From assembly GCA_964187785.1 (NCBI GenBank), contig OZ076409.1, forward strand, positions 8,310,001 through 8,374,000: DNA of 64,000 nt. Direction: 5' to 3'. The translations under genes and the position numbers were made by a program. This DNA is from Amphiscolops sp. MND2022 (Eukaryota). This document shows, piece by piece, positions 17,556 to 49,272 of the stretch; position 1 is the stretch's first letter; every line of letters begins with the position of its first letter. Under the pieces are notes generated by a model. That model saw only the letters and a list, made by a program, of their open reading frames with translations. It did no database searches and was not told the DNA's origin.

Positions 17556-17565
17556 CTACTCGTCA

Positions 17566-20193: not shown

Positions 20194-20239
20194 GTTTTAA
20201 ATCTTCACCAATAGAGAAGACGGGGATTTTTGACAGTGT

Positions 20240-28419: not shown

Positions 28420-29103
28420 TTATTTTGAAAAGGTTAGCATATTTGTTGTATGGCTCGGTCGCTTCGCTCCCTTCGCCAAGTAGCAACACTGAGGCATGGC
28501 CATATGGCACGTCGCTCCGCTTCGCTTCGCTCCTGCATTTAGGGCACTAGGGGTGTAAGAACCATGACCCATGGTATCTCTTAAATCTCCTACAGATCTT
28601 GAATCTTTCTTTGCAATTTTTATTTTAGGCCCGGGTGCGCTTTCCCTGTTCTCCTGACTATTTGGAGACGAACTGGCCTCAGTGTCCCTGTGTCCCATAG
28701 AGGACATCGAGTTTGCAATATTCTGGATTTCTGGAATAACTCTTTCAGCTATAGCTGTCGATATAGCCCCATTTATTTGGCTATGCATTATTGACATCAT
28801 AGATTCCATTTCTTGAGACAATCTAAGATTAAACTCACTTGAAAAGGCTTCAAAGGATTGCCTGACTTCGTTTTGTCTCAAAGGTTCATTTTCATGTAAG
28901 TAACCTCTAAACTCATTTTCATGGTACACATTCGTATCACCGTCCCCGTGGGCCGATGACTGATCTATTGCTTCAGCTAGCTCTCTTTCAATGGGATTGT
29001 TATTTTCATTTCCCAGCATCACATCTAGGTTATCATAGTCGGACAGTATGTCCATTTCTCTAGATCTCCTAGCTTTGGCTTTCTGTCGTCTAGTGGAAGG
29101 CAT
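28420..29103 (-). pseudogene. Duplicated Gag N-terminus in the 3' LTR, reading out into flanking DNA
   Basis: The first ~183 aa are identical to the 41459-43147 ORF. It diverges after ...GHGSY at the LTR edge (28554). Confidence 0.9.
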
Positions 29104-30113
29104 AAGAGATTATTGCAAGAGGCAAGAATTTAAATTAATATCTTGGGCTTGCAAAGTGAAAATGAACGGGTAGTTTTAATAAACAATTCGCAACAGTAAC
29201 ACATCAAAGTATCATCAGGTTAATTCTGTCTCCGAGCCCACCAGTCCCGGTTATATATATTTGAATTTGCATGACACTCAATAAAATGGTGGTCATAATC
29301 TAAAAATAGCCTTAAAGGCTTTCTAAATATAGCTACAATCTATAAATAGCAGGCAACGTCAACATTACATCATGTAGATCAAAGGTCCCTCTTGGCGGCA
29401 AATATGGCGGTGGGACCATGAGTCCGTTAGGACAAGCAACTGCTTACATGCGTACTAATCAACGTGCTACATGTATGAAATACATATTACATGTATGAAA
29501 TGCTTATTACATGTATAGATGGTAACTTTACATATATTCTAAATATATCGCGCAAATTACATATAAAGCAACACCATCAAACTAAGTCTAAAATATTAAG
29601 TCAGTCCTTTGAGGACTAATAGCGCCTTTTATTAGCTATCAAAAGATTAATTATTACATAACCAGTACTGCTAGATAGAATAGCACTCTCAATTAAAGCG
29701 CGGACTCAGTGTCCAATAGACTGGTACAGCCCAGCGCTTTATTAGCAGGCGGCATATAGCCGTCTAGTCTTTTAATTCTATTAAGCCAGCACGAGTAAAG
29801 GTTACATAACACTGCGCTATGATTGGATGACGAGTTAGTCGGACTTGCGGACCAAGGCGACAGGCAAGAAAACATTTGAACGCGTTTCCTTTACCTGTAC
29901 GCCTTGGTGTCCAATTAACTCGTATTAATGCATAGAATTACATAATATAACTTGCACAAAATGAAATATATAGAGTTTTACATGACTTTTTAGAGCAACA
30001 ATAATAGTTTTCCTTGTAAGTTTTCTAATTTAATGGAAGGGTGAAGGGTTCTGCTTTCTTGTAGCTATGGCAGATTGAGTATGTGTTGCCATCACAGGCG
30101 GACGCCTGGGACA
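28554..30113 (-). repeat. Element 1 3' LTR (1560 bp)
   Basis: Direct repeat of 42598-44157 (offset 14044). No difference was seen by eye. Confidence 0.97.
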
Positions 30114-31068
30114 CTCCCCCTGGAATAAGCATAAAGCAGCCCACCTTCATTCCTTCCAAGAAGGCTAGTCGTCTCGCATTGAACTGCTTGGCGGATTCTC
30201 CTCGGACGGACGTCTTGTGTAGATAATCTATGACCGCTTCGTCCTGAATCTGTTCCACAGATTTTCCACACACGAGACAATCTGTGCACCCTGTAATATA
30301 CGGGTTATCTGCTGCGGTCGGTCCACGGAAGTGAATACCACCTTCGTGTCGTTGGGAGCTGCCACAAGTGGCTTCCGCGGTTATCCTCCAGTCGCCCGTA
30401 GGATATTTATCAATTGCTGGGGGCGACATGGGTGTGTCGACCAACGGGATCAGTTGGCTGCACAAGTTGATTGGATGGTCGTTTCTAAGCCGTGAATCCC
30501 TCGCAATTGGTCCTCTGCCCATTCCCAGCTCAAAGTACCCAGCGTCGAACATCGGTCCCGGCACGTATGCAAGCCTGGGAGTAGTAGCTCGGGTCACTTC
30601 TTGCTTTCCTGAAGCTGAGGGGATTTGAATTCCTGCTGAAGTCGACGGCAAGTCCAGTTGTCTTTCCACACATTGGGCCAAGAGGGCCATTTCGTCGTCA
30701 TCAGACAGGCTCTCCAAGTCATCCACGGACGCCCTGCTTGCGCACTCCATGTCGTCGTCACTAGAGATGCAAATAACACCGTCTCCCGGGGCTGCTCCTT
30801 GAAAATCTTCAGGGTAATACTCAGGGGACTCTGAGTCAAATTGACTTGCAAGGAATTTATTCATTATTGCTTTTTTGGCAATCTTGGAAGTTGTTAGTTC
30901 TAGGTTTTGAAATTTGATAAGCAGCTGAATTTCGAGATTGAAACTGAAACAATGGCGATTTCTTCCTCCGTCGACTAGCGGGATTTTCTTCTCAGTTTCC
31001 CGGGGTTTTACGTCTCCCGAGAAGGATAAATTTTCAATAACAAATTCTATCTTGGTAATATCTTTCAT
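30025..31068 (-). CDS. ORF3, accessory protein of unknown function (likely start Met at 30864, ~279 aa); not env-like
   Basis: Open 347 codons. It is homologous to element 2 ORF3 (PMSPPA; CxxCG.S...I..E...DY; RGE; G.F..IP..VSQA..C.G) and has a SIM-like VICISSDDD. There is no obvious signal peptide or TM anchor. Confidence 0.8.
   Translation of the reverse strand: MKDITKIEFVIENLSFSGDVKPRETEKKIPLVDGGRNRHCFSFNLEIQLLIKFQNLELTTSKIAKKAIMNKFLASQFDSESPEYYPEDFQGAAPGDGVICISSDDDMECASRASVDDLESLSDDDEMALLAQCVERQLDLPSTSAGIQIPSASGKQEVTRATTPRLAYVPGPMFDAGYFELGMGRGPIARDSRLRNDHPINLCSQLIPLVDTPMSPPAIDKYPTGDWRITAEATCGSSQRHEGGIHFRGPTAADNPYITGCTDCLVCGKSVEQIQDEAVIDYLHKTSVRGESAKQFNARRLAFLEGMKVGCFMLIPGGVSQASACDGNTYSICHSYKKAEPFTLPLN
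30114..30121 (-). promoter_or_regulatory. Polypurine tract (AGGGGGAG)
   Basis: Purine run abutting the TG of the 3' LTR on the minus strand. Confidence 0.75.
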
Positions 31069-32138
31069 CTTTCCGTCTTGCCTTCTTTGATAACGCCGAC
31101 AACTGCCTTGTTGGCTTACATCAGTTCTGTCAACACCTCCATATTAAGAGTGCCGCTTCAAGTGTTTATTAACACTCAACAAGCACTTAAAAGATTCAAG
31201 AGGGTGAAGCTATGGCAGACGGCCACGCCGTCCATCAGCGTTTCTGATCAACCAATAGGAATGCAGCAAAATTTCTCTTGAATAAAAATGGCTTCCCAAG
31301 GTCGTAAATCCATATAAGGAATAATATAAAATGACCTGAAATTAAATAAAATCCTGGTAAAATCATGAAATATCTAATAAAATGGTAAAGTTTCGAAATA
31401 AGATAAATGGAAGAATGTAGATATTGCTGGCAGACTCTATCCACATAATAGTGTAAATTGTAAATATCTTGTAAATTTGACACCAAATTGTATAGCCACG
31501 AACTCCAACTTTGACATCTTGTCACATTGCCAATTCTCTTTTCAATTCATTATTTTCAAATTCTTTCCAGTTACTCTTTGTATTATCGTCCAGTATTTAA
31601 TCATCTCTAGTCTTTTAGTCTTCTAGTCGTATTTACTCCGTATTCATTTAAAGTAGTCATTTGTAATTTCTTCCAATTACGTCTTTTGTGGATTTCTTGG
31701 GTTATCCTAGGACAATCGACACTGAGTCCCTTTTGCTAATTCATCTTCAGCAATCTTTCTTGTCCTTCATCAAAGAAGAATTTGTCTTCTCTCTACAACT
31801 GCTGCTGTATTGTCACCAGTCCAGCTTCGTCATCCTTCTCTACTGATCGCTCAGCTTCCAATTCAGTGACCACCAGTCTAACTGTACACAGTACTCCCTT
31901 CTCAAGACATCCTTCTTTGCTTTCAAACAGGTCAGTAGCTTTTCAGGTTTTGTTTCTATTTTAGTATTGAATTAATCTGAGGCTTGATCAGGGCTCTCAT
32001 TTCATTCACGTACTTCCTGTCCCATAACACAAGTATTCACTTGAGTTCGAAATATCTACTTCCGGAAGATTTTTTAACGCGGTAATGGACTCTTTCTCAG
32101 GAAGTTATCCGCTTGAGTTTATCTCTTTCTGTTTAGAC

Positions 32139-35100
32139 ATGTCGTCCGAAGAGCAAAACGATATTGTTCCTGCCACCGCTACTACATCCATGATTGAAGA
32201 AGAAGTTGCCATCCCCAAAGAAGCTGGTACTAGTCAGGCCACTTCGATCCCTGTTGACCCTGAGTCCACGCAACTTGTGCCGCCAGGAGATGATCCTGAT
32301 AAGGCTGCTCCGACCCCAAGCCCTTCTACGGATGAAAGCATTTCCGCTTACATTGACCGTCAATTGCAGACTTTGGGTTGCCAGGGCCTTGGACTTGACA
32401 TCTCCTTCTTGCCCCCTACTACATCTGCCATTGTAGACAATGCACCAAAGTCAATCGCTGAGAAAACTTCTGAGTCGGAACCAATTCCCCAGGTCACGAC
32501 TGGGTCGCAAGACAAGGAGTCTCCTGAGGCTGAGATTGAGCGAGGCGGTGATGCTGCCAGTGAAGCTGGATTTTCCGTCACCAAGGCGGATTACTTCCAA
32601 ACTGATACCAGCGACACTGAAGAAATACTCGATAGTTCCGGTGCTGAGACCATCAAGGAACCACCTTTCGTGATTGCACTGGATGCGCTAAGCTCCACTG
32701 GGACTGAGACCCATGAGAATGTCAAGCCATCCACCTCGGCTGAGATACCTGGCACATGTTCTCCGAAGCTCTTCAGTCCAACCAGACCTTTATCTGCCTC
32801 TGCTAGAACGCTGATAAATCAGCATTTCAATGAGACCAACCCATGTATCCTCCCGGTAGGCCATGCGACTGTAGCCTTCAATCAGGGGCAAGTCCATTCC
32901 ATCTTGCGTGCCGTCTCCACGGAGACCATTACTTCTTCCCTTCATCAAATGAAGAACATGCTGGAAGAAGCGATCCGGGCAGGAATTCGCTCCCAAGGTA
33001 CTCCTCAAGGATCCGGGAAGCAGCGAATCAAGATCTTCCGTAAGCAGAGCGGCAGCCTTGGATCAGGTGCGGAAGACAGTGACGTTGGGACTGAGGGGTA
33101 CACTAGCGGAGCCCTCAGTTCGGAAGATGAGTTCGTCATCAATTCTCAGAGAACCAGCAAGGATCTGAGCATCAATCCTCCTCCAAGTCCTCCAGATCAA
33201 GGTTCGACATCAACACCTGGCCCATCGTCCGCACAGCAAGTCCCTAGTCCAGGATTCTGCTCGACTGACTATGAGCCTCTAGCCACATTGACCGCTGACC
33301 AAGCTTCTGCCTCAAGTCCACCTCGCAAACGTCGTCGGCTTCCAGTACGCACAGGCAAAGTAATGAAAGAAGCCTATTTCAAAGGAATTCAGTGGACTCG
33401 GACATTCGTCACTGGCCCCCTTGATCCAGAACACAACAAACATAAGTTCTACTGCCAGATATGTAAGACGAATGTTTCCATTTTCTCAAAAGGAGCCCGG
33501 GAGATTGTTCGCCATTTCCAGTGTGAGTCGCATTTTCGCAAAGACCAGCGCTGGAGATATGAGCACCTAAGGAAGAAGGACAAGGTGACTGGCCGGACTG
33601 TGTACGAAGTCAGGGGGAAGAAGGGCCAATTGTTGACCCCCTTGGAGCTTGAGAAAGAGAAGCCTTTCTTTATGCAAGTCCCTTTGGTCGAAACTGGCAG
33701 CAGTAACCCCTTCTACGAGGACCATATGGCTGGCCTTGGCTCCATCGCTGGGCAGGAGGAGATCAGACTGTGTGTTCAAATCTCCATGGTTGCTCTCTTC
33801 GCTCCCCGTTGTGGAGATCTAAACGTCCTTGAGTCGCTATGGTCACAGATTGGCACTGTTACCAATCATCAGAGTCTGTTCTCTCCTTACGATTGGGGCT
33901 CCTCCAAACTGACAGTAAGTATCGGCGGTTTCTAGCCTCAGGGTCCTTTAGTCCTAACGTAGACCCGACTCATTTTCATCCTGGTTGATTTTGTTTTAGA
34001 CGATCTTTCATCACATCTTCCTCTGCGGCATCGCTGACATCGCCTATCAAGTCAGTGTCACGGGTCAGTACTCTCTGGAGTTTGAAATGCGAGGCACCTA
34101 CAGCTTCATCTCGATCCGGTTCTGGAAGGGCGAATCCCTCAATGTCGTCCGTTTGCTACGATACCGGACTGCTTCAGAGCCTGCAGCTGGTTTCCTGTTG
34201 GTACTTTCCCGCCTCTTGTCCGTCCTATCAACGCAACCTCAGATTGTGAGCGTGTCCGGGTGTCCTGCAGAGGTGATTCCTCTTCTTGAACGTTCTTGCC
34301 TCTTCCAAAAAGGGATTGAGTACCCTTTCCGATTTGATGCTCTTTGTCTGCCAGACCTGATGCATGAACGATGGGGCAGCGTGTTTGGCAGTATCAGCTT
34401 CTTCTCTCAGTTGAAGTTTCTGATTACCTTCCTGGACGGTTGCGGTGGACAGCCCTGGGCCGCCCTGATGCCAGAATTCGTCAAGGTAAGGTCACTGTCC
34501 GTAAGACTGTAGGTCCAGTTTTGAATTGCCTCCAATAAGCATGTTGATTGTAGGCGATGACTACCTATCACCTGGAGATTGCCGCTGTACCAGCCATATG
34601 TTCGGAACTAATTGCGAACTGGAAGTCTGTGCACCAACATCTGACGAAGATAGCACCACCACAGGTCCACCAGGGGGTCAAAAACAAGCCCCAAAGCCTC
34701 GAGTGGGAAATCATAGCTGATGATTTCTTCACCATCAAGCTGGAGTTCTTCGCACGAATTGTCCGCGATTGTTAGTATATTGTTTTTTCTCTTGTCTACG
34801 GACCTCATGGTCCCAGTTTGTCTTACCACTATTTGAGGCTCATGCTAGATATAGTAGATTGACATGCTAGGTCTAATGGTTTCATAAAGACCCTTCAGGA
34901 TGGTAATGTTTTGTTTTCCAGACACCAAGAGCTTCGAGAGTCAGTTTGCGCAACGAAGGGATAGTGGCTTCTACACCTTCCGAGAGTTCCATACTTTCAT
35001 TCGCAAGTTGGCAGGTCGAGCACTACTTCCCAGACACGTGCCTGATATTCTGGACTGGAAGTCGCTGGGAGATTTGCAAGGACAGAATTGGCGACAACTG

Positions 35101-36072
35101 TCTAATCGAGATTTCTTGAGTCGCTTGAAGCTCAAAGAAAATTTGGATGCCGCATGCCATGCTCGCGTCAGGAGAATTTATAACGAGAAGCAACTGACGC
35201 CTGAAGAGACGGAGACAGCAGCTGAGGCCCTTCGGGACGATTTCGCCACCAAGGCCCGAGGTTACCTCGTCCACCTTTTGAAAGTCTTCCTGGCCGACAT
35301 TAGCTTGAATGCCCGTATCGTAAGAGGTCTGGGCAGTTTCGATCCAGTAGCCCTCCTGAGTCTGCCGCTTGAGCAAGCCACATACTGTTTCTCCGCTCTG
35401 TACAGATCCTTTAGTTTGCGAGGCTGGTTAGAGAATTCCCCAGAGACTGATGCCCGAGACGAGTACATCGATTTCGTGGAGTTCTTCCGCCAAGCCAACT
35501 CTGGAGTCAAGGATACCCCAGAGGTCTTCACCGACATGGTAGCCTTTCTGATTGGTATGCCTGAATTGAAGTTGCGGAAACATCTGTTCTACATCTTCCA
35601 GTTGAGTTGTCTGTGCCTGACTTCTAAGTTGCCAGAGCTTCCAGCCATCAAATTCTCTGGAGTTGACTGTAATGATCCCCGAAGTAGACTTTTCGATGTC
35701 ATCATGCCTGCACAGTCTTACCTAGCTAATGTGGCTAATTCAGTGGCTGTGTGCACTACAGAAGCTTCCCTGGGCACCTTCAAAGATCTGGAGTTCCGAT
35801 TCAGTATTGGCAACGTCCCAGGAGACCCTTGGTCACACGTAGACAGTTTCGGCAAGGCTAATTTGCATAAAACTTTAATTGCAGTCTACAAGGCTCTGGG
35901 CAAGAGTGTCCGTCCTGACATCGAGTCCGCTTCCAATTCCTCGTCCAAAGAAGGGGGGAAACAACGTAAGCTGTCCCCTGGTAAAGGCAAGAAAGTTGGC
36001 TTTCGGGCAGCTGGTGAGACTGAAGCCGCAAAGTCCAGTGATGCAAACGCTCCTGGAACTTCTAAATCTTAA
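32139..36072 (+). CDS. Spliced antisense gene, ~1209 aa: disordered N-terminus, NLS, BED/TTF-type zinc finger, inactivated hAT-transposase-like body. Coding exons 32139-33914, 34000-34485, 34554-34770, 34922-36072
   Basis: Three GT-AG introns join four ORFs in frame with no stops: 33915-33999 (GTAAGT..TTTTAG, phase 0), 34486-34553 (GTAAGG..TTGTAG, phase 0) and 34771-34921 (GTTAGT..TTTCCAG, phase 1). Motifs include W...FYCQICKTNVSI...G..EI.RH....SH and PPRKRRR. Confidence 0.88.
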
Positions 36073-36308
36073 ATGTACAAAGAGTACATTTGTTTCTAGA
36101 CTGTACTTGTTGTAAATTGCTTTATATTTATTTCTTCTTTGTTGCCTGTTTGTGTGGCTTTGTATTATTCGCCACTGAGTCTCTCTTTTCGTATATAATT
36201 AGTTCCAGTAATCGATAAGAAAAATCAGTCAGAGTAGTCCCAAGTAAAAAATAAAAGTCCTCAAGGGCTGGAAGTGAAGTAAAGGGACTGGTAATTCAAG
36301 TTTTCTGA

Positions 36309-39300
36309 CTAGTATCTGTATTCATCAGTAAAGTTGGGGGTAGGGTTAGGTCGAAGATTGTATTTCCCTCCTCTAGGGCTCGAATTTTCATTTGAATTTC
36401 CATTTTTTGATATTCCGGGCACGGTAATATCTGCGCCTTTGTTTGAAACGTTTTCCGTATCTTGTAAATCATTAGTGACGTCATTTTCATTCTCAGTGCG
36501 CTGTGACGTTTGAGTCGGGGGGGACGGTTCGTCACTGCTATTGTTCTCTCTCGGGGATATTTCGTCCTCGGTAACGTCATATTCTGTCGTACGCTCATTG
36601 TAACTTTCATTGCTGACGCGTTCGTTCTCGGTGACGTAATTTCTTGTCGTGCGCTCGCTGCAGCTTTCATTGATAGTTCTTTCCTCGTCGGTAACGTCAT
36701 TGTCCGTATTAGTGGACTCGGCGTCCGTCGGCCGGCGTGTGGCCACGTCTGTCCAATTTTCCTTCCTCGGTTCAAATAAGTCGTACTCAAAGTCTACTTC
36801 CCATGAGATAGTGTACAAATCGTCTTGCGGGATTACTATCTCATTGTCGGGTTGTAGTTTTTCTCCATCGTATTTGTCCTCTAAAGGGGCATTCGGGACG
36901 AATTTCTTTAGTCTAATGCGATGAAGTATTTGAGTTTTATTTGTATTTAGACGACGGACAATATAATTGTCGTTGGACAGTACTTTTTGAATGACGAATG
37001 GTCCAATCCACCTGTATTCCTTGAATGGAATTTTTGATGCTTGACTGTCCGCTTTAGGTTGTAGAACAAAACAATAGTCCTTTTCTTTAAGCGGGGCAGC
37101 CTTTGCCTTTCGGTCGTAATAGTCCTTATATTTCAAATAAGACTGCATGATGTTCTTTTTCGTTTGATCTATGAGGATTTGTGTCCTCTGCTGTACTTCC
37201 TCCGCAAATTCTGTAGTTGGCAAAAAATTTTTATTGGGGTTATTTCCCAATTTGTGGTCTAGGACGTTATAGGGAATCCGGCCGTGGAAGACTTTACTCG
37301 GTTCGCATCCAATACTAGAGTGGTATGTGGTATTGTAGTTGAGTACTGCTAATGGTAAATATTTATGCCATTGGCGTCGATATTCCCCTGAGGCCATTTT
37401 CAAATTTGTTTTGAGTGAGGCATGCGTCCTTTCGAGTTTGCCAATTGTTTGCGGGTGCTTTGTAGTAGCACATTTGAGTGTTATACCCAAAATTTGAGTT
37501 ATCTCAGCTATGATGGTCGATGTAAATGCGGACCCTTTGTCTGTGATGAGAGTTGTTGGTAAATATGAATGTTTCGTCATGATATCAATTATCACCTTGG
37601 CTACATTCGTGGCTGTTGCCTCAATTAGCGGGTAGGCGAATAAGTACCTTGAGAATACATCTATAGCTGTCATCACCGTCTGGTATCCGCCACTAGTCGG
37701 TAAGTTTGGTAATAAGTCTATCTGCATGGCATCTTCTGGACCAAGGTCCCATTCGGGCAAGTTCAACAATTCTGGTGTAATTGTATTATTTGGGACTCTT
37801 TTGTCTCTAGCGCACGTTTCGCATCCCTCTACCCATTTTTTAACGTATTTTGCTATGCCAGGGTAGTAATATTTTTGGCGGATCTCTTGCAGCATTTTAG
37901 AGATGCCAGGATGTCGATGTGCCGTGCCATGTATTGCTTGCAGTAGTTCTTTCAACAGGTGCTTTGGTAGTAAGATTTGGTGGTATTTGATTTGTCCCGT
38001 TTCGTCGTAATACTGTCGGGTCACTATTTCGTCCTTGAGGACTATACGGTCTAAATTATTTAAATAATGTTTATACCGGCTGTCCTGCTGAAGGATTTCC
38101 TCAGAGTATTCTTCATTTTGAATTTTTGCTTTTAAATGAAGCAAAATCGGATCTTTGGATTGTTCTAGTAGTATTTGGTTGGTTCTACGTAGTTTCTGGG
38201 TGAAATTGGTAATTTCATCCACTACATTTTCAGATATAGTATCTATTTGGATGACGGTCTCGTCGACCTTGAGTCCTGCTTTTGATTGTCTTTTCCTTTC
38301 CCAAATTTGTTCTTCTGTTTCATTGTCTTCTTCGGTAAAGAACACTTGTTCTTCTTCAGACACGCCGGCTGATTGGACATTGACTTCAATGGGTTGGGTT
38401 TCAACGTCCGCTCGGATTTTTAGGACTAACTTTTCAGTGGGGTCCATTTCCATGCGGGACAGGTAGTCCGCCGCTGTGTTGTTTTTGCCTGGAATGTGCG
38501 CTATAGTGAAATTGAACTGAATGACAAAGTCACACGCGTTCCATAATGGCGGCGGTATTATTTTAGTCTGGAAGAACCTTGTGACCGATTTGTTATCTGT
38601 GAGGATAATCACCGGCTTAGGTGTGCCCCAGAATATATGTCCAAATTCTTTGAAGGCGTAATAGATGGCTAAGAATTCCTTCGCATAAATTGACATTTTA
38701 AGTTGTGAAGGAGTAAAAGTTTTTGAACCATATGCAATAGGCGCATAGGATTTCTTGGTTGAGGTAAATTTCTGATTTGGATCATCTTCAGTAAGTATAG
38801 CATATCCGGCTGCTGTAAAGCTAGCATCTGTCATCAGGACTAGCTGTCGATTTGGCAAGGGCTGCCTAAGGGCCAGCTGGGTGCATCTGTCCAAATCTCT
38901 ATTGATCTCGTTGAATTGTTCGATCAGTTCCGTTGTGACTAAGACCTTTTCGTCTTTCTTTAATAGTTGAAAGAAAGGGACTAATTTTTCTGATAACCTC
39001 GGTATGTAGTTTCTATAATAATTAAGGAATCCGAGGTAACGTTGTAAGGCTTTTTTGGATTTTGGGAATTTCGTTTTTTCTAGGAATTGTGTGACTCGTT
39101 CCTTCTGGGGCTTGACACCCTCAGGGGTGATTGTCCTTCCTAAGAAATCAATCTCAGTTGCTCCAAAGTGGCATTTATGCATCGTTAATTTCAATCCAGC
39201 CTCTCGGATGCATTCGAAAGTTGCTCTGAGATTTTTAATGAGATGCTCCGCGTCGTTGGCTGCAATGCCAATATCGTCCACGTATTGGGCACATTGATCG

Positions 39301-41456
39301 GCTTTGATGACACGGTCCAAATATTCTCTCATAAAACTGGAGAATGCCGATAAGGCTCTGCTGAGACCTTGGGCCAATCTTCGATATGCGAACGTTCGGC
39401 TGGCAAAGTTGAAGGCCAACATCTCTATAGACCGTTGGTCCGCCATTTGAAGGCAGTGGTACGCTTGCGAACAGTCAAGTTTACAGAAAAGTTTCTTTCC
39501 GGCCATATGTTGAGCAGCGTCCGTTAAGGTGCTGACTGGATGGTTGTTGTTGATATAATCATCAGAAATAAGATTGTTGATCTTCCTGAGGTCTACCAGT
39601 AGTCGTAGTTTCCCATTAGGCTTCTTTTGTGCAAAGATAGGGCTAGCGTACTTTGAGAATGGTAATGTTGTTATAATTCCATATTTGTGTAGTGACGCTA
39701 ATTCGACCAGTATGTCCTCTTTTAAATTGACCGGAGTTGGTAAGCTCTGGCTGTAGGCAGGAGAGTCGTCCTTTGGGGTCAATTTGACCGTGAACTCCTC
39801 ATTCATACCGATGTCAAACCTATGACGGGCAAATATGTCGTGAAATTCGACTAATAGCGCTTCTATCTGTTTGATTTCATGCTGTTGTAGCATTGAGTCC
39901 TTCCAGTCAAAGTTACTGAGGAATTTTTGTCGAGATTCTTCATTGTCTTGTGGGTTGAGTTTTTCTGCTTCTTGCAGGTTTCGTAATTCTCTAAGAATTC
40001 TCTTTTGTATTGGAGTATGGGACTCTTCGTCCCCTGGGTTTTCGGGTGTTGGAAACCAGTATTGTTCGTATTGGTCATTGTTCCTGTTGGCTTTGAGAAG
40101 ACTGCTGATATAATAAATAGCGTCTTCTTCATTTTCATTGAGTAGGTGCCAAGTGGACACTGGGTCTATTGGCCTAACGTGCTTCATTTGCTCTGGAGTC
40201 ATCACAGAGAAATTCGCTATGTGCATCCCTTTTTTGAGTTTAAAGGGCTGATCAGTGAAGTTGTTGACATGGATCCTCGTAGTCCCTTCGTCCAATGTGA
40301 CTATGGCGGCACAAAATGTTATATCATTTTCTTCATTTAGAAGGTCACTGGGTTGTAAGATTCCAGTGACAGCGTTTTCTGCATAAATTTGAGATTGGAT
40401 AGGGATGATTGTGCGTCCATTTGGGGGAATCGTTATATCCTCGGGGTTGAGGATGGGTTCCATCACATTGGAGTACTTATGGTCAGCTGTTTTCAATTGC
40501 ATCGAGAAGAAGGGAAAGTTAAGTATGCCTTGGCGCATATCTAGGACTGTGTGGTTTCTTTGTAAGAACATAAGTCCGATTATGGGGCTGGATAATTTTT
40601 CCATCACTATGAAGATTTCGTGGAACTCTATGTCCCCTACTTCGAACTTCAGTTCTACTGTACTCTTCGGAGTTTCCAGGTCTCCATTGGCGACCATAAT
40701 TTGGAATGACGGGGCAGGACCCTCTTTCACTATTGATTGGGGTGCAAGTAGCCGTATTTTCCTAAGGTCAGCTTCTGGTATCGCACTGGAGTGGGCCCCA
40801 GTGTCTATGAGACCATCTAATGTTAGTTCTCCAAAGTCCATTGGGAAATATAGCATCCTCCTTTTGATTTTGAGGCCAAGGTTGGTGGAGAGGGGAACGT
40901 ATGACGGTTCTCCTTGTTTTTCCACTAAAATGTGCAAGAAGGCTGTTTCGTCTAAAAGGCTATCGGGGCCTTGAAAGTCTTCTTGTTCTTGAGTTTCCTC
41001 TATTTCTTCTAAAAGTGCTTCGGAATTTGGCTGCCAAAGTTCAATGAGGGCTCTGGATAGTTTATTGTCCACTATCGGGGGATCATCCTCATCGTCCGTT
41101 GGTGGATATTCGTCTTGTCTAAACTGGAGTTTTTGTCTGTCGTAGAGTTCGTCGTCCCAATACGGGTCTTTGCCGTAATCAGGATCGAGGTATTGAGGGT
41201 GATAATCTTCGATCAGGGGTAAGGGACGGAATTGAGTCTCGAAGTCTTTAGTATAGTCTATTTCGTAAAATCGGTCTGGGCGATCATTATGTACTATTTT
41301 ATAAGTTCGGATACAGGCTTTTTCCATTTGTTGCTGCCAGACAACAGTGGGAATTCCTTTTGTATCCTTGATTATTTGGCTGTATTTGATTATTGGAGGA
41401 TCTGAAATGACATATTGTCGAACCGACATGTAGTCATGTATTTGGAGTCGTGGCAA
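36309..41456 (-). CDS. pol: Pol polyprotein (protease, dUTPase-like spacer, RT, RNase H, integrase), translated by -1 frameshift from gag
   Basis: LIDTGA (protease), KLDCSQAY/YVDD (RT), TDAS...ADYLSR (RNase H), H..AH.HPG...CETC, QIDLL/TDKGSAF/LERTH (integrase) and WIGPF (GPY/F motif). Confidence 0.97.
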   Translation of the reverse strand: MPRLQIHDYMSVRQYVISDPPIIKYSQIIKDTKGIPTVVWQQQMEKACIRTYKIVHNDRPDRFYEIDYTKDFETQFRPLPLIEDYHPQYLDPDYGKDPYWDDELYDRQKLQFRQDEYPPTDDEDDPPIVDNKLSRALIELWQPNSEALLEEIEETQEQEDFQGPDSLLDETAFLHILVEKQGEPSYVPLSTNLGLKIKRRMLYFPMDFGELTLDGLIDTGAHSSAIPEADLRKIRLLAPQSIVKEGPAPSFQIMVANGDLETPKSTVELKFEVGDIEFHEIFIVMEKLSSPIIGLMFLQRNHTVLDMRQGILNFPFFSMQLKTADHKYSNVMEPILNPEDITIPPNGRTIIPIQSQIYAENAVTGILQPSDLLNEENDITFCAAIVTLDEGTTRIHVNNFTDQPFKLKKGMHIANFSVMTPEQMKHVRPIDPVSTWHLLNENEEDAIYYISSLLKANRNNDQYEQYWFPTPENPGDEESHTPIQKRILRELRNLQEAEKLNPQDNEESRQKFLSNFDWKDSMLQQHEIKQIEALLVEFHDIFARHRFDIGMNEEFTVKLTPKDDSPAYSQSLPTPVNLKEDILVELASLHKYGIITTLPFSKYASPIFAQKKPNGKLRLLVDLRKINNLISDDYINNNHPVSTLTDAAQHMAGKKLFCKLDCSQAYHCLQMADQRSIEMLAFNFASRTFAYRRLAQGLSRALSAFSSFMREYLDRVIKADQCAQYVDDIGIAANDAEHLIKNLRATFECIREAGLKLTMHKCHFGATEIDFLGRTITPEGVKPQKERVTQFLEKTKFPKSKKALQRYLGFLNYYRNYIPRLSEKLVPFFQLLKKDEKVLVTTELIEQFNEINRDLDRCTQLALRQPLPNRQLVLMTDASFTAAGYAILTEDDPNQKFTSTKKSYAPIAYGSKTFTPSQLKMSIYAKEFLAIYYAFKEFGHIFWGTPKPVIILTDNKSVTRFFQTKIIPPPLWNACDFVIQFNFTIAHIPGKNNTAADYLSRMEMDPTEKLVLKIRADVETQPIEVNVQSAGVSEEEQVFFTEEDNETEEQIWERKRQSKAGLKVDETVIQIDTISENVVDEITNFTQKLRRTNQILLEQSKDPILLHLKAKIQNEEYSEEILQQDSRYKHYLNNLDRIVLKDEIVTRQYYDETGQIKYHQILLPKHLLKELLQAIHGTAHRHPGISKMLQEIRQKYYYPGIAKYVKKWVEGCETCARDKRVPNNTITPELLNLPEWDLGPEDAMQIDLLPNLPTSGGYQTVMTAIDVFSRYLFAYPLIEATATNVAKVIIDIMTKHSYLPTTLITDKGSAFTSTIIAEITQILGITLKCATTKHPQTIGKLERTHASLKTNLKMASGEYRRQWHKYLPLAVLNYNTTYHSSIGCEPSKVFHGRIPYNVLDHKLGNNPNKNFLPTTEFAEEVQQRTQILIDQTKKNIMQSYLKYKDYYDRKAKAAPLKEKDYCFVLQPKADSQASKIPFKEYRWIGPFVIQKVLSNDNYIVRRLNTNKTQILHRIRLKKFVPNAPLEDKYDGEKLQPDNEIVIPQDDLYTISWEVDFEYDLFEPRKENWTDVATRRPTDAESTNTDNDVTDEERTINESCSERTTRNYVTENERVSNESYNERTTEYDVTEDEISPRENNSSDEPSPPTQTSQRTENENDVTNDLQDTENVSNKGADITVPGISKNGNSNENSSPRGGKYNLRPNPTPNFTDEYRY

Positions 41457-41458
41457 AA

Positions 41459-43147
41459 TTAGTTTTTTGAATCAGATTTTTTAGTATTGGATTGGCTTGA
41501 AGTAGCCGTTTCTGAGTCATTTGCTTTTTTAGGCTTTCCTTCGGAGTCTATAGCATTTCGGTCATTTTGTTCTGTCTGCATCCTTTTGGGTCGCAGGTGG
41601 GCGCCAGCGCCTTGCCAGCATCTTTCGGTTGGGTGGTTCTTTTTGCCACATGTGTCACACGGTGGGTAAGTTGGACGTTGAGGTTTTTTACCGTCTTTGT
41701 CCTCCATTTCCTTTTTCTTCTTGAGTTTCGGGCAGTTTTTGTAATAATGACCTGTCGCTTTGCAGTATGAGCATTGGGCGTCTTTATTTGTGTTGATACC
41801 ATTAGACAATAAGTTGTTATGGCTCGTGGACGCCGAGGCCATAGTGGCCATTGGTAGATCATCTGACTCTTCTAATGCATTGAGTTCCAGTTCTCTTTCA
41901 AGATGAGCTACTATTTCTTCATACGTGCCATTCTCCAGACGGGCCATGTTGACAGATCGTTTCAGTTTTGGGGGTAATTTCGCGTATAACAAGCTGTCGA
42001 TCATGCTTTTAGCGTTTTCCCCAAATGCTTTTTCTGCACCTTGGTTTAGTTCTTCCAAGAAGTCTGGTAGTTTCATTGTACTTGGGTCGAAGGTTAATCG
42101 GTGCCATTTATGCTTTGCTGTTGCTTGTGATTCCGGTTTGACATATTTCCTCCGGAATATGACCAGTACGTCCTCGAGAGTTTGACGGTTGATTGAGTTT
42201 ATGTTCCTGAATGTCTGTAATGCTCCCTTTCGTAGCAAAGAATGAAAGTGATTAATTTTCATTTGTTCTGTCATTGTGGGCTGCATTTTGATCATCGTAT
42301 GGAACAAGTCCTCAAAGAGCTCAAATTTCTCACTTTTCCCATCAAATGTCATCGGGGTTGTTTGTACGGGTCTGATTGTCATAGATTGCGGTTTGTTTTG
42401 CAAATTGACCAATACGTCGGCTAATCTATTAAACGGGTCCTGAGGAGGTTCAGGAGCCTCTGGGGCCGGGGCTGGCAGAGTCGTGTCCAGAGAGATATTG
42501 TGGGTAGATTGTTGTCTCTCTAGGTTCGGGATTGAGTGGATTCGTCCGGTCAGAAATTCGGGAATTTGCGGTTGGGTGTCGGTAGCTCCTGTCACCATGT
42601 AAGAACCATGACCCATGGTATCTCTTAAATCTCCTACAGATCTTGAATCTTTCTTTGCAATTTTTATTTTAGGCCCGGGTGCGCTTTCCCTGTTCTCCTG
42701 ACTATTTGGAGACGAACTGGCCTCAGTGTCCCTGTGTCCCATAGAGGACATCGAGTTTGCAATATTCTGGATTTCTGGAATAACTCTTTCAGCTATAGCT
42801 GTCGATATAGCCCCATTTATTTGGCTATGCATTATTGACATCATAGATTCCATTTCTTGAGACAATCTAAGATTAAACTCACTTGAAAAGGCTTCAAAGG
42901 ATTGCCTGACTTCGTTTTGTCTCAAAGGTTCATTTTCATGTAAGTAACCTCTAAACTCATTTTCATGGTACACATTCGTATCACCGTCCCCGTGGGCCGA
43001 TGACTGATCTATTGCTTCAGCTAGCTCTCTTTCAATGGGATTGTTATTTTCATTTCCCAGCATCACATCTAGGTTATCATAGTCGGACAGTATGTCCATT
43101 TCTCTAGATCTCCTAGCTTTGGCTTTCTGTCGTCTAGTGGAAGGCAT
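41459..43147 (-). CDS. gag: Gag (562 aa) with two zinc knuckles; starts inside the 5' LTR
   Basis: Capsid-like TFDGKSEKFELFEDLF region, with CSYCKATGHYYKNC and CDTCGKKNHPTERC knuckles. Confidence 0.95.
   Translation of the reverse strand: MPSTRRQKAKARRSREMDILSDYDNLDVMLGNENNNPIERELAEAIDQSSAHGDGDTNVYHENEFRGYLHENEPLRQNEVRQSFEAFSSEFNLRLSQEMESMMSIMHSQINGAISTAIAERVIPEIQNIANSMSSMGHRDTEASSSPNSQENRESAPGPKIKIAKKDSRSVGDLRDTMGHGSYMVTGATDTQPQIPEFLTGRIHSIPNLERQQSTHNISLDTTLPAPAPEAPEPPQDPFNRLADVLVNLQNKPQSMTIRPVQTTPMTFDGKSEKFELFEDLFHTMIKMQPTMTEQMKINHFHSLLRKGALQTFRNINSINRQTLEDVLVIFRRKYVKPESQATAKHKWHRLTFDPSTMKLPDFLEELNQGAEKAFGENAKSMIDSLLYAKLPPKLKRSVNMARLENGTYEEIVAHLERELELNALEESDDLPMATMASASTSHNNLLSNGINTNKDAQCSYCKATGHYYKNCPKLKKKKEMEDKDGKKPQRPTYPPCDTCGKKNHPTERCWQGAGAHLRPKRMQTEQNDRNAIDSEGKPKKANDSETATSSQSNTKKSDSKN
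41462..41468 (-). promoter_or_regulatory. -1 ribosomal frameshift heptamer A AAA AAC
   Basis: TCA AAA AAC TAA lies at the gag end, and the -1 frame continues K-L-I-L-P-R-L-Q into pol. The identical heptamer is present in element 2. Confidence 0.85.
42586..42597 (-). promoter_or_regulatory. Primer-binding site TGGTGACAGGAG (tRNA-Leu-like, inferred)
   Basis: It begins with TGG directly after the LTR CA. The identical 12-mer follows the element 2 LTR. It is one mismatch from the TGGTGTCAGGAG Leu-type PBS. Confidence 0.8.
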
Positions 43148-44157
43148 AAGAGATTATTGCAAGAGGCAAGAATTTAAATTAATATCTTGGGCTTGCAAAG
43201 TGAAAATGAACGGGTAGTTTTAATAAACAATTCGCAACAGTAACACATCAAAGTATCATCAGGTTAATTCTGTCTCCGAGCCCACCAGTCCCGGTTATAT
43301 ATATTTGAATTTGCATGACACTCAATAAAATGGTGGTCATAATCTAAAAATAGCCTTAAAGGCTTTCTAAATATAGCTACAATCTATAAATAGCAGGCAA
43401 CGTCAACATTACATCATGTAGATCAAAGGTCCCTCTTGGCGGCAAATATGGCGGTGGGACCATGAGTCCGTTAGGACAAGCAACTGCTTACATGCGTACT
43501 AATCAACGTGCTACATGTATGAAATACATATTACATGTATGAAATGCTTATTACATGTATAGATGGTAACTTTACATATATTCTAAATATATCGCGCAAA
43601 TTACATATAAAGCAACACCATCAAACTAAGTCTAAAATATTAAGTCAGTCCTTTGAGGACTAATAGCGCCTTTTATTAGCTATCAAAAGATTAATTATTA
43701 CATAACCAGTACTGCTAGATAGAATAGCACTCTCAATTAAAGCGCGGACTCAGTGTCCAATAGACTGGTACAGCCCAGCGCTTTATTAGCAGGCGGCATA
43801 TAGCCGTCTAGTCTTTTAATTCTATTAAGCCAGCACGAGTAAAGGTTACATAACACTGCGCTATGATTGGATGACGAGTTAGTCGGACTTGCGGACCAAG
43901 GCGACAGGCAAGAAAACATTTGAACGCGTTTCCTTTACCTGTACGCCTTGGTGTCCAATTAACTCGTATTAATGCATAGAATTACATAATATAACTTGCA
44001 CAAAATGAAATATATAGAGTTTTACATGACTTTTTAGAGCAACAATAATAGTTTTCCTTGTAAGTTTTCTAATTTAATGGAAGGGTGAAGGGTTCTGCTT
44101 TCTTGTAGCTATGGCAGATTGAGTATGTGTTGCCATCACAGGCGGACGCCTGGGACA
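42598..44157 (-). repeat. Element 1 5' LTR (1560 bp)
   Basis: TGTCCCAGG...GGTTCTTACA on the minus strand; repeat of 28554-30113. Confidence 0.97.
43295..43325 (-). promoter_or_regulatory. Putative LTR core promoter: TTGAGTGTCA + 12 nt + TATATATA
   Basis: The same two motifs with the same 12-nt spacing occur at 48619-48648 in the otherwise unalignable element 2 LTR. The site is ~150 nt upstream of the gag ATG. Confidence 0.6.
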
Positions 44158-45799
44158 AGGGGTATGTGAACATAGCTGACGACGCAATAATAAAAATTCC
44201 GACAAACTATGCAGGGACCACACTTATAAAATAGGGACCACACTTAGTCAGGAGAAATCGCTTGGGACCACACTTAGTCAGGAGTACCCAATTGATTGTG
44301 ATCTTCGAAGTCATGGATTGTCATACCATCTGTAATAATATTTAATTCTGAAAGAATAAATAAATGGGTTCAGAAAGTCTTCATAGCAAAAAGACACTCA
44401 GAACAAATGAGCGATTCGGCAAAGCCAAAGTCGAATAAACGTGAACATGTTTGACCCTGATCGGCGTGTGTCGCAATAAGCTATGTTGAAAAAACGATAT
44501 CTGAAATGACAGCTTCGTAATTTCGGTTTACTTAGTGCAATTTTCAACACTGTTTTTCTCAATTGAATAATAAAATTAGTAGTAACAAATAGTGCTCGAA
44601 TAGCATACAAATGTACCGAATTCAAGAAAGAAGAAAAACACTAACCGCTGTAAAAAGGTAAACAATGACAGGCAATAACTGTAAGCTCCAGGGACTCGAA
44701 ATTGGTTAGTTTTTTGATATCGAGTTTTTCTTCTACAATTATAGCGATGACTGCTGCTGACTAATAATACTAATCGAGTGTAATTGAAATTCTAGCCAAC
44801 AATAATTGAAAAGGATGGCCCCTTTAGCTATTTTTGGCGTGAACAGTCACTGACGAAATTGTCGAGCATAATATAATTTAAGAAAAAACTCCAATCACAG
44901 TGGCTAATGATCTGATTTTTTCTTCTTCAATTTGCTGAGATTTTGCTCGTTAAACAATTCTCTCGGAATAACTGAAAATTACTGGTGCGTAAATTAATTA
45001 AGCATCGAGAATCACAGTCGCAGTAATTTGGTTCTAAATGGTTTCAGAATTGCGTTTCAGGCTCTATTTATATGCATTTAGAGTATCTCCTGAGTCTACT
45101 TTAGAAACTGATCTAAGAGCTTTTGCTTTGTTCGAGAAAACATCAACCTACCTAGGCTTGCATCGTTCCGATAAACTCAAACAAATTGTTAAACAGTGTT
45201 TAAGTTAACATGCGTTGCTCTTCATCCAATTTTGCACAAGACAGTGACGAAACGAGACGATGACAAACGAAGTTGCCCGAACAGGCGCCGAGATCAGTGT
45301 CAGATCTTCGGCTAATTGCCGTCATCAATCTTTCACATGAAGAGATATCGCATTGTTTTGCCGAAGGATGTTTTTGTTGTCGTTCGGGTGAACGAACTGA
45401 ACTATTCGGTCAACTAATGAAAAGACATCATCAGTTACATAACATCAGTTTCGTGGTACGTCTCTTCAGTTTTGTGACTGATTCACAAAGCACGAAATCA
45501 GAAATTGCGCCGCTTTGCTGGTGTGAATAATTAGCCGATTAAAAGTTGATGATCAACTTTGTCACTAAGTTTACGTCTGTTACGACAAAACGAATTTTTG
45601 TCGGACGAAACTAATAAGACGATTTTTGCCTTTAATCGGGGGGTCTTTTCAGAAGTCAATTGCAACTCAAGTGGGCACATCTTCACAAGAAGGATCTCAG
45701 GTTAAACAAACTCGCGTCTCCCATGTATTTATTTGCTACTGGCAAATAATTGAAGCCCTCTCAAGCAGTATCGATTGTTTTGACAAGGATGCTGATTAG

Positions 45800-46260: not shown

Positions 46261-47119
46261 ATATATTTGTTTAATATCTTTGTCAAGGTAATGTTACTAC
46301 AAGGGTGTTCAATACATGTATTGTATTCGAATATTATTATTGCCTGAAATGAATTATTCTATTTTCAGGGTGGGAAGATGAATAATTTCGTTATTTTTTT
46401 GCTAAAATGATTGTTTATTCTCAGCGAAAAACGGATATCATCAAAAACTTAAATTATGCTCTGAACATCACAAAGGGACCAATACTTTTTTGTTCGCCAT
46501 CAAAAAAATTTGCGACTCAAAATTCACTGGGCTGAGTTTTTGGCGGTGATCTCTCATGAATTTCAATATGGCTAACAATTCTCGAATTTAATTGGCTGGC
46601 GATATGTTAAATTAAACGCTTTTAGTTTTAGTCATCTCAAGAATAATTCTCTTCAATTCAACAGATCCAAAAATAAAAATTTATTTGAGTGTAAAAAGAA
46701 ATTATTCTATATTTCTTATATTTTTAACCAACAACTTATTGAACACGCCTGCTTTACTATATACTCACCGAAAAAAGTTCTTAATAAAAGTCAGCTGAAA
46801 AACAGGAAGCAAATGAAAAATTTTCTTCTGCAGGCAATTTTCTTCTGCATTGACACTTCTATCCTAAACTTGAAAAACTTTTCACAGAATTGAAATTCAA
46901 GCAGCAGTTTTTGCAGCTTTCGTCGAAAATCTCGGCACTGGTGACATGTATCAGAAAAAATTGCAACTTTTGGTCAGTTTTTGCCTCTGCAGAGAATTTG
47001 CACAAAAATAAAGTATATCCATTAGCCCTGTCTTAAAACACGGTGAGGAAAGTTTTTTTTATTTCCCCCTGCGATTTTTTTCTAAAATTTTCTTTGTAAA
47101 TCTAAAACTTGTAGGCTAG

Positions 47120-49272
47120 TGTCGCAGGCTGCCGCCTGCAATGGAACAATCATCACGACATCAGCAGACGGACAAAACATCGCACCAGGAATGCTTCCTA
47201 CATTTTATTGTTAAAACTGAAAATTAACCAATCACAGTGCAGTATAGCTAGTATTATTTTTCAGTAATACATTATTTGGCCGGTTATGGCCGCTTGCCTT
47301 AATCTAACTACTATGCTCGCACACGCTGGTCCAATGTCCGGTTCCGGCCTATTTAGCTTTCATCAAGTAGTATGTGCTATTTAATCAGTAGTGCTGTGTA
47401 TTTTCTTAGAAAGTACTTGAAGCTGTCTTAATACGTCAGATGCAATGATTAAAAGTGTTAGGAGAAGAATTGCTAATTGTTTTAATTATAGTTGCTATTG
47501 ATAAAAACCTGTACCAGAAACGTCATTTGAGCACGCGGCCTTGTCCAATCAAATTACTCCATTTGCTACGCAGTTAATACTTCCATTCATTAATGGCCGA
47601 ATAAGGCCTGTGGACATAACTTCGCTGCTTTTAATAAATATTCAGTCAAACGGCCGGTTCCGGCCATTTCACATAAAGTGCAATTGTGATGCTAATTGTT
47701 CCCACACTTAACCAGGATTCATGTGCTTGTACTCTTAGGCTAAATAACCCCTCTAGTGCAGTAATATCTAACTTTATCCCAAACTTAGCTCTTTCAAACG
47801 GTTAAGGCCGTTTTACCAGTATTTAATAATGATTACTTAGTACGGGGCAATTAGCCTATTCAGGCCAGATTGTGTAAAGTGCTGTACACATTTTTAATTG
47901 ATTGGCCGTATTGACACTTGACATTATATTAGATTGGTAATGCAGGACAAAAGGCAGATGGCCGGTTTAGGCCATTTTGCCTATTATCATTAGAGATGCT
48001 TTTAAGCATGAATGAGTTTGTTGTACAGTCATGTAAGAATATATTTATATACTTGAAGATGTTAATGAGCTTTTTAAATCCAATTAGTGCAATAATAACG
48101 ACCAGTAGTAGCAATCCCAATACCCGTCACCTGTCCTTTTCCGGCCTTCGCTATTGGCCAGCTTCCAAGTCCAATGGCCGTATCGGGCCATATTACTATA
48201 TTATGTTCATTTCTATTGCATGAAACTGTGTCTTTGTTTTGTTGATTCTACGCACGTGTGTTGGCACGTGACGCTAAATAGTTTACATTCCTCTCACTGT
48301 AAACAATTTGAAAGTATTAGTTTTGACGTTTGGTCAAAGTGTTGTTTGCCTTATATAATAAGGCTAAATTCCTCCGCTTCCCTTTGATGATAGTATTTGC
48401 AGTTAAAAATGCACTTGAGTGCATTCCATATTTTATGTAAACTTTAAATGATGTTGCTGCGAATGAATTAGGTATGAATGCCCTTTGACCCTAACGGGAC
48501 AAATTCCTAAAGGGTTTTGATGTAGTTGACGCCGCTAAAAACGAATGAATGTTAGTGGTCACCCGCCGTAGTCACGTGCCATTTATGAAATCTGTAAATA
48601 GATTGTTATGCAAGGAATTTGAGTGTCACCCTCTCAGGGGTATATATATTAGTATTTTTCCCGAGAGCGACACAATTGTATTTTGCTTCTCCAAGTTTAG
48701 TTTGACATACCTGTTTACGATATAATGTACAAAATCCTAATTTCCGAACAAGATAATTCACTATTTTCGCTCGGACTTTCTCCAATGCATATTCAAAGAA
48801 AGAGGAGAAAGCTTAGACAGGAATCTTGCTAGAAGGCCCGAAAGTGCCATTAGCAATAACTTTGGAAATGACGATGAAAAAATGTACTCAAGTCTACGAG
48901 TTGTCAGTACAGGGATAAATGCCGATTACGGCCAGAATTCAGTCGGTACTAATTCTAATGCTGAGATTAACAGATTGTTGAGCGAGTTGAACTCGATGAT
49001 ATCTAGAGAATTAGATGGGATGATGAGTAGTGTCAATACCCAGATCCAAAGGGCAATTAGTGATGCAATTGATAGTCAAATATTGCCTCAGATTCAAACT
49101 GCCCTATATTCCGGATCAGGCCATTTGACACAAAATAGATGGAACGTTCCGTCCGAGAGACCGGAAATTAATCCCGAAGAAAAGTGCTCTAAGAAAACTA
49201 GGAAAAACTCAAGAAGTGAGCAATTCCGTGATCGTCCAATTGACGGAACCACAAATGCTAGTGCTTACGACA
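47120..49272 (+). repeat. Element 2 5' LTR (2153 bp)
   Basis: TGTCGCAGG...CTTACGACA. It repeats 56551-58697 with scattered substitutions and small indels. Confidence 0.95.

Follow-up and report, generated by a model that had tools for sequence, protein, structure and literature searches.

An intron-containing gene antisense to gag-pol, under purifying selection in a Ty3/Gypsy-type LTR retrotransposon family of Amphiscolops sp.

A complete 15.6-kb Ty3/Gypsy-type long terminal repeat (LTR) retrotransposon in the genome of Amphiscolops sp. MND2022 carries a four-exon gene on the strand opposite to gag-pol, between pol and the 3′ LTR, and this gene is kept under strong purifying selection by the element family. 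The element (element 1) occupies positions 28554-44157 of a 64,000-nucleotide (nt) stretch of DNA, called the window here (GenBank assembly GCA_964187785.1, contig OZ076409.1, positions 8,310,001 to 8,374,000 of the forward strand), with gag-pol on the minus strand and the antisense gene on the plus strand. The antisense gene is best explained as the element's own accessory gene, the product of which most likely acts in trans as a nuclear, nucleic-acid-binding regulator with a C2H2 finger; a probability of about 0.6 is given to this reading. The coordinates of all features are collected in Table 1.

Three introns with GT-AG borders separate the four exons. Exons 1 and 2 are closed by whole codons, and the last base of exon 3 forms a Tyr codon with the first two bases of exon 4. 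The four exon pieces contain no stop, and the joined coding sequence of 3684 nt specifies 1227 amino acids (aa). The original prediction, made from the sequence alone, had joined four open reading frames (ORFs) in frame through introns of 85, 68 and 151 nt into a protein of about 1209 aa, antisense to gag-pol and inside the LTRs. The introns and the in-frame joining were confirmed by sequence reading and by 20 further copies, and the placement by the positions of the LTRs and gag-pol. The start at 32139 did not hold; the N-terminus conserved among the homologues starts 54 nt further upstream, with the ATG at 32085, which gives the greater length. In DNA of 50% GC, frames of 610 and 383 codons stay open with a chance of less than 1e-8 per start (own calculation), and a chance origin of the open frames is excluded by this frame-length arithmetic together with the selection described below.

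The gene was compared in 20 other genomic copies, picked to cover 89-99% protein identity, with 10 kb taken around each. Among 7713 first-look candidates for exon 4 in the 1.07-Gb genome, at least 106 matches were scored; 104 of these 106 are 89-100% identical and 95 are without a stop. Each of the 20 copies has a layout collinear with that of the window, the LTR side with a separate reading frame (ORF3) being followed by the gene and then by integrase. One copy has lost intron 1 by a deletion; in the other 19 its donor is GT (19/19), its acceptor AG (18/19, with AG to AA in the remaining one) and its length 84-85 nt. The GT and AG borders of introns 2 and 3 are kept in every copy, and the length of intron 3 varies from 151 to 155 nt. 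Exons 2-4 are constant in length among the copies, whereas introns 1 and 3 drift by 1-4 nt; length differences of exon 1 among open copies are multiples of three. All four exons are open in 11 of the 20 copies. Intron borders that stay conserved and rejoin a single frame, in spite of drift in intron length, are the mark of a spliceosomal gene, and the conservation of the splice sites among copies indicates that the introns have been retained through many rounds of retrotransposition.

The ratio of nonsynonymous to synonymous substitution rates (dN/dS), a check proposed with the original prediction, came out low in every exon (0.02-0.29 over 10 pairs). The values were 0.16-0.29 in the disordered N-terminal part and 0.02-0.24 in the rest, at a synonymous divergence (dS) of up to ~1. 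Between repeat copies this ratio mixes selected with post-insertion changes and is biased upward, so the case for selection is not weakened. Because post-insertion decay could only raise dN/dS, the values point to strong selection on the protein.

The predicted exon borders were also examined in relatives. A public protein library holds 434 relatives of the family at E<=1e-3, and the best 150 of these are all unnamed single-exon calls of at most 420 aa. The library search returned no homologue of 691-2000 aa for exon 4. Exon 1 of all eight homologues read ends in Thr/Ser-Val, which corresponds to a translated GT donor, and in six of the eight Val-Ser corresponds to a translated GTAAGT; the donor-encoded end 'TVSI' is conserved in homologues down to 45-50% identity. 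Intron 1 is read through in frame, followed by exon 2, in two database relatives, and intron 2 likewise in one. Four relatives (P0025, P0090, P0142 and P0042) have no intron 3; their reading frame continues without a break over the predicted junction, and Phe, Tyr or Val stands at the position of the spliced Tyr. Intron 3 appears to have been gained or lost within the lineage of this retroelement-borne antisense gene, and loss by reverse transcription of a spliced antisense mRNA would be a neat possible mechanism. The family offers a natural system in which intron gain or loss can be followed inside a retroelement. Within the genome, gene lineages (7124-7713 first-look candidates) are 94, 78, 68 and 48% identical to one relative.

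More distant elements share the same arrangement. In a lineage that is 33% identical in exon 4 (one copy), pol is 62% identical and ends 160 nt downstream on the opposite strand, in the same convergent layout. The window also holds element 2 (47118-58697), which is older, broadly of the same kind and oppositely oriented; it has the same primer-binding site (PBS) as element 1, and its LTRs are 97% identical. Between its pol and its ORF3, a minus-strand ORF antisense to pol matches the C-terminal part of the exon-4 profile. Plain tblastn with the exon sequences gave no significant match in element 2 (E 0.07-1.1), and a family profile hidden Markov model was needed for the detection of this remnant. 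The gene is thus lineage-wide and lies on the opposite strand between pol and the 3′ LTR, the arrangement by which antisense accessory genes are recognised. The flanks of the gene were searched, and neither terminal inverted repeats (TIRs) nor a target-site duplication (TSD) of its own was found, nor an 8-bp duplication of the hAT type. An 11-nt inverted repeat at 31572/36076 was considered as a TIR and rejected; it is at chance level for 6.6 kb and its flanks are not duplicated.

Because the 20 collinear copies, the 33%-identity lineage and element 2 share this layout, the gene is an integral accessory gene. It is an old, faster-evolving companion of the retrotransposon clade and not a nested insertion. 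Two earlier statements, that a homologous remnant sits in element 2 and that TIRs and a TSD are missing around the gene, agree with these results. In the copies examined here the gene likewise lies within such LTR elements, a point raised with the original prediction; a TIR/TSD-bounded insertion missing from most copies is not the case, since all 20 copies hold the gene.

Table 1. Features of element 1, its antisense gene and the element 2 remnant (window coordinates; a dot marks a feature without strand).
Feature	Position	Strand	Basis or remark
Target-site duplication AGGGG	left 28549-28553, right 44158-44162	.	same 5 bases outside both LTR ends
3′ LTR of element 1 (element sense)	28554-30113	-	1560/1560 identical to 42598-44157
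ORF3, 372 aa stop-to-stop, first Met 31068; extends past the polypurine tract and enters the 3′ LTR	30025-31143	-	ORF list and sequence reading
AT-rich spacer preceding exon 1; candidate internal promoter and 5′ untranslated region	31144-32084	+	sequence only
Conserved CAGGTCAGT motif, ~150 nt upstream of the start codon	31928-31936	+	kept in 19/20 other copies
Exon 1, 610 aa	32085-33914	+	sequence reading and homologues
Basic PRKRRR stretch, putative nuclear localisation signal	33321-33338	+	basic patch conserved in homologues
Single C2H2-type zinc finger, C-x2-C ... H-x5-H	33453-33533	+	sequence reading
Intron 1, 85 nt, GTAAGT..TTAG	33915-33999	+	sequence reading
Exon 2, 162 aa	34000-34485	+	486 nt in 19/20 copies (those with the whole exon)
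Intron 2, 68 nt, GTAAGG..GTAG	34486-34553	+	sequence reading
Exon 3, 72 codons and 1 base	34554-34770	+	217 nt in 20/20 copies
Intron 3, 151 nt, GTTAGT..CCAG	34771-34921	+	sequence reading
Exon 4, 2 bases, 382 codons and TAA stop	34922-36072	+	1151 nt in 20/20 copies
Gap of 236 nt between the convergent stops of the antisense gene and pol	36073-36308	+	AATAAA at 36250-36255 in element 1
pol, 1720 aa: protease, dUTPase, reverse transcriptase, RNase H, integrase	36309-41471	-	Pfam scan
gag frame: DUF1759-like and CCHC knuckle; stop-to-stop frame enters the 5′ LTR	41459-43153	-	Pfam scan
Primer-binding site TGGTGACAGGAG, adjoining the 5′ LTR	42586-42597	-	element 2 has the identical 12 bases
5′ LTR of element 1	42598-44157	-	LTR self-comparison
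Remnant of the antisense gene family in element 2	54400-54765	-	exon-4 profile positions 285-342, E 3.9e-7

The carrier has the features of a Ty3/Gypsy element: direct LTRs, a TSD, a PBS, a polypurine tract (PPT) and the order protease, reverse transcriptase, RNase H and integrase. By self-comparison of the window its two LTRs are identical direct repeats. They end in TG..CA, and their inner ends are adjoined by the PBS and by a purine run (the PPT). The insertion of element 1 is very recent, as seen from the identical LTRs, the TSD and the PBS.

The product of exon 1 is arranged as a conserved N-terminus, a disordered part of ~440 aa, the PRKRRR stretch, the CCHH finger and an alpha/beta region. 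The first ~440 aa are rich in Ser, Thr, Pro and acidic residues, carry a net charge of -25 and are mostly disordered in the structure model; short conserved motifs and a helical hairpin are also found in this part. From its composition and conservation, the PRKRRR stretch is a putative nuclear localisation signal. The Pfam family zf-C2H2_ZN292 gives a weak, sub-cut-off match in 14 of 31 family members (best E 1.4e-4), and zf-BED (PF02892) is touched by one of the 31, at E 4.1. In a low-confidence model, exon 2 shows the order beta-beta-beta-alpha-beta-alpha-beta, the element order of RNase H-like folds. Exon 4 is modelled as an all-alpha domain (pLDDT >85 over residues 30-240) followed by a disordered basic tail.

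A mechanism can be proposed for the maintenance of such a gene. Splice signals exist on the plus strand only and, by splice-signal logic, the minus-strand genomic RNA would never lose the introns. Each new insertion would inherit the intron-bearing gene by reverse transcription of unspliced genomic RNA, the introns being copied into every insertion because they would be invisible in the minus-strand RNA. A separate plus-strand transcript, starting in the AT-rich spacer or in the 3′ LTR, would then be spliced, and the spliced mRNA would direct synthesis of the 1227-aa nuclear zinc-finger protein with an acidic, activator-like half. The protein most likely switches on or protects transcription of the element, or blunts host silencing. 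A role of this kind is known for HBZ of HTLV-1 and has been proposed for the antisense genes of plant Retand/Grande elements. That the protein serves the element follows from the strong purifying selection on it in a family with thousands of copies.

Several points weigh against the proposal of an element-encoded regulator, and function is the weakest link of the explanation. No Pfam family was found for any exon, nor for 30 + 31 relatives, beyond the weak single zinc finger, and a single C2H2 finger by itself is no proof of DNA binding. The regulatory function is put forward from composition and by analogy. Splicing, the promoter and the poly(A) site of the antisense gene are likewise predictions from the sequence. 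The AATAAA in the gap downstream of the gene was rejected as a conserved poly(A) signal; it is limited to 7 of the 20 other copies, and GATAAA or AATGAA stands in its place in the rest. The GC content of the antisense gene (50%) differs from that of pol (42%) and of the LTR (39%). This distinct composition fits a foreign origin of the gene, and would leave room for a role other than regulation of the element.

The question of origin was raised by the original prediction, which had derived the protein from a hAT transposase by a list of motifs read by eye. The motifs are at the places given, the CCHH finger at 33453-33533 included; a resemblance to hAT proteins above chance was not found. No Pfam hAT, BED, DUF4371 or dimerisation match was obtained in any exon or in the 30 + 31 relatives. 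The hAT dimerisation domain (PF05699) was absent from exon 4 and 30 relatives at E<=0.1, while the same model scores 150 matches elsewhere in the genome. Five hAT sequences from the same genome, two full length and three partial, were used for comparison. In the two full-length transposases the classic motifs of the BED, DDE and C-terminal regions can be recognised by eye; the antisense-gene protein is without them. When three family alignments were compared with the five sequences by hhalign, the probability was 0.1-0.2%. Family profiles scored on the two full-length transposases no better than on 1000 shuffles of each (p 0.09-1.0), and the family profile against the BED region of a genomic hAT gave p 0.088. 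A sequence search of the PDB with exon 4 returned a single chance-level match (Mx1, E 0.8); profile searches of the PDB returned none for exon 4 and a chance-level trigger factor (E 1.1) for exons 1-2. The literal motifs (DDE triad, CxxH and RW) are absent from the sequence, and there is no statistically supported alignment on which to place them. Because the profile, shuffle, PDB and TIR tests are negative, the by-eye matches do not exceed chance.

Structure comparisons gave weak leads. With the 808-aa model of exons 1-2 (mean pLDDT 48.6), the best Foldseek match had a non-significant E of 0.039. The hAT transposase Hermes stood at rank 4 (2bw3_A, E 0.06, 246 columns) and rank 11 (8edg_A) in the list obtained with this low-confidence model, and other RNase H-like folds were among the top 25 at E 0.04-0.2, namely the UvrC C-half, retroviral integrases, a poxvirus resolvase and RNase HI. 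The weak, non-significant Hermes rows came from two separate models. Second-look and wide structure searches of the exon 1-2 model did not retain the Hermes or RNase H-like rows, and the exon-4 model searched against the PDB by Foldseek gave a best E of 1.2. In the ESM Atlas feature search, the finger region led to a Spin-doc/GT2D2 finger cluster (0.90) and to a cluster with 12% zf-BED (0.89), both taken as leads only, with relatives labelled Mollusca; no usable match for exon 4 was found in the Atlas. The profile and Foldseek comparison with hAT proteins, which had been proposed with the original prediction, thus yielded only weak and non-significant Hermes rows, and the derivation from a hAT transposase was not borne out. 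The 'catalytically dead hAT' is a lead and not a finding.

Three other explanations of the gene were weighed against the element's own regulator. The protein could be a catalytically dead hAT-type transposase, with a BED finger, an RNase H-like core and a helical insertion domain, captured as a DNA-binding factor. This proposal concerns origin and fold and is compatible with the regulatory function suggested above. The parts of the protein follow one another as in hAT transposases (Hermes, PDB 2BW3/8EDG) and proteins domesticated from them: the zinc finger comes first, then an alpha/beta region with the beta-beta-beta-alpha-beta-alpha-beta arrangement, and last a large, long all-alpha domain; the Foldseek rows and the GT2D2-type and BED-containing finger clusters lean in the same direction. 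The protein differs from hAT transposases in having no sequence or profile similarity to them, no dimerisation domain, no recognisable DDE, and neither TIR nor 8-bp duplication, and with no Pfam or significant PDB match the proposal remains tentative and rather unlikely. A bolder version, in which an exapted DDE-less transposase-like zinc-finger protein (RNase H fold with helical insertion domain) is encoded by a multi-intron antisense gene long carried by a large clade of animal LTR retrotransposons, with introns gained or lost inside that lineage, and is used by the elements for their own chromatin control or for disarming host silencing, is more speculative again and must be called unlikely. 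If true, it would be a case of a DNA-transposon protein domesticated by a retrotransposon instead of by the host.

A captured cellular gene could also ride in the element as a passenger, open either since the copies are young or since the host or the gene itself benefits. The base composition unlike the rest of the element would agree with this, as would the absence of any known retroelement domain from the gene, and the introns would imply entry as genomic DNA and not as processed mRNA. The low dN/dS values extend, however, across sublineages up to dS ~1, which speaks for long selection in transposing lineages; the gene is kept in the 33%-identity lineage and has left a remnant in element 2; and no homologue longer than 690 aa or outside the element layout was seen in a limited search for free-standing host copies. 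The passenger explanation is improbable. Least credible of all, with hardly any weight left to it, is an independent transposon or insertion nested in one copy, or a set of chance open frames. Nothing but the 11-nt inverted repeat brackets the gene as such an insertion would require, and that repeat is at chance level with unduplicated flanks, whereas the gene stands at the same place in all 20 copies and in diverged lineages and its coding frame is under selection. An accessory gene of the element, encoding a nuclear regulator, is therefore preferred to these explanations.

Antisense extra genes are known from other retroelements. In the available text of two plant studies, Ty3/Gypsy elements of the Tat/Retand and Grande groups carry an antisense extra gene between pol and the 3′ LTR (PMC11963269, PMC7264820). 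The plant antisense ORF proteins (TRP28, PF04195) are described there as lineage-wide, with predicted DNA binding, and are proposed to regulate the element. The present gene has, as far as that text goes, the same position, orientation and lineage-wide occurrence. The word 'intron' is absent from the main text of PMC11963269 and PMC7264820, whereas three conserved introns interrupt the present gene, which codes for 1227 aa. Unlike the plant proteins, the protein described here contains no TRP28 (PF04195) or other Pfam domain.

Reportedly, an additional antisense gene named brtn, described by Zhao et al. in 2011 (Virology 417:248), is carried by Boty-like Gypsy elements of Botrytis cinerea. Both are antisense extra genes on Gypsy-type LTR retrotransposons; the host of brtn is a fungus, and the two are likened by description only. 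HBZ and APH-2 of the deltaretroviruses HTLV-1 and HTLV-2 are minus-strand retroelement genes; their mRNA is spliced and their product is a nuclear regulator. HBZ is a small basic leucine zipper protein, its transcript starts in the 3′ LTR, and it overlaps other genes, whereas the present gene encodes a 1227-aa zinc-finger protein and has all its introns within the coding region. Antisense genes of HTLV are mentioned in the available text of PMC11963269. Among animal elements, the Gypsy-like Juno, Vesta and TelKA of bdelloid rotifers have a dUTPase between protease and reverse transcriptase and varied captured third ORFs, according to the available part of PMC5408684. In that part, 'intron' occurs 0 times and 'antisense' once (for small RNAs), and antisense extra ORFs are not mentioned.

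A full-text literature search, with subscription journals and Repbase reports outside its scope, turned up no animal LTR retrotransposon with an antisense gene that contains introns, and no LTR retrotransposon at all with a hAT-like antisense gene or a multi-intron one of similar size. As the present case shows, a retroelement need only place an ordinary gene with introns backward for that gene to be carried stably through thousands of cycles of reverse transcription. The case extends the antisense accessory genes of plant and fungal elements and of deltaretroviruses to an apparent animal clade of the Gypsy type, and it adds a new and large protein family with 434 database relatives. The DUF1759 of gag and the Mollusca labels of the Atlas relatives point, as a lead only, to an invertebrate host. 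As a candidate for a regulator or anti-silencing factor encoded by an element, the family is tractable. It also carries a warning for annotation, as thousands of open, selected and spliced ORFs of this kind can pass as host genes.

The region around the gene showed some further features. A TATA-like run lies near 31313-31335 in the upstream spacer, as read from sequence. A block of high identity common to subfamilies (31927-36580) begins exactly at the CAGGTCAGT motif. Between subfamilies this gene block is 89-93% identical, against ~78% on the ORF3 side and ~87% in pol. Synonymous divergence drops from ~0.45 in exon 1 to ~0.16 in exon 4, and introns diverge less than synonymous sites. This pattern of divergence suggests recombination between lineages or extra constraints. 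The CAGGTCAGT motif resembles a splice donor on the plus strand; on the element sense strand it resembles a branch point with acceptor, and could serve a subgenomic ORF3 mRNA. A 44-nt intron in the 5′ untranslated region (31930-31973) was considered and rejected, its acceptor not being conserved among copies.

ORF3 is separate from the antisense gene. It lies between that gene and the 3′ LTR, on the sense strand and 5 kb downstream of pol. Its product has an acidic patch and a Cys-rich C-terminus; no Pfam family and no obvious membrane segment were found in it. A homologue occupies the same place in element 2 (55833-56630, plus strand; 26% identity, E 1.7e-22), and with a dN/dS of 0.12-0.24 ORF3 is under selection.

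Other observations concern pol, the LTRs and the neighbourhood. The dUTPase of element 1 is situated between protease and reverse transcriptase, at 40197-40445 on the minus strand (pol residues 343-425). According to the available text of PMC5408684, a dUTPase at this place is rare in retrotransposons and known from bdelloid rotifer lineages. At the 3′ end of pol, three tandem 60-nt units (36560-36700, minus strand; 72-90% alike) form a 20-aa repeat in the integrase tail, and the subfamily alignment is interrupted around them, at 36580-36717. Each LTR contains a 20-nt tandem repeat of 2.5 copies (29468-29516 and 43512-43560). A separate small retroelement is found at 17375-20420 on the plus strand, with an 895-aa ORF encoding a reverse transcriptase and a PHD finger; this ORF lies in a local GC-rich stretch, flanked by two 181-nt direct repeats that are 99% identical and stand 2865 nt apart.

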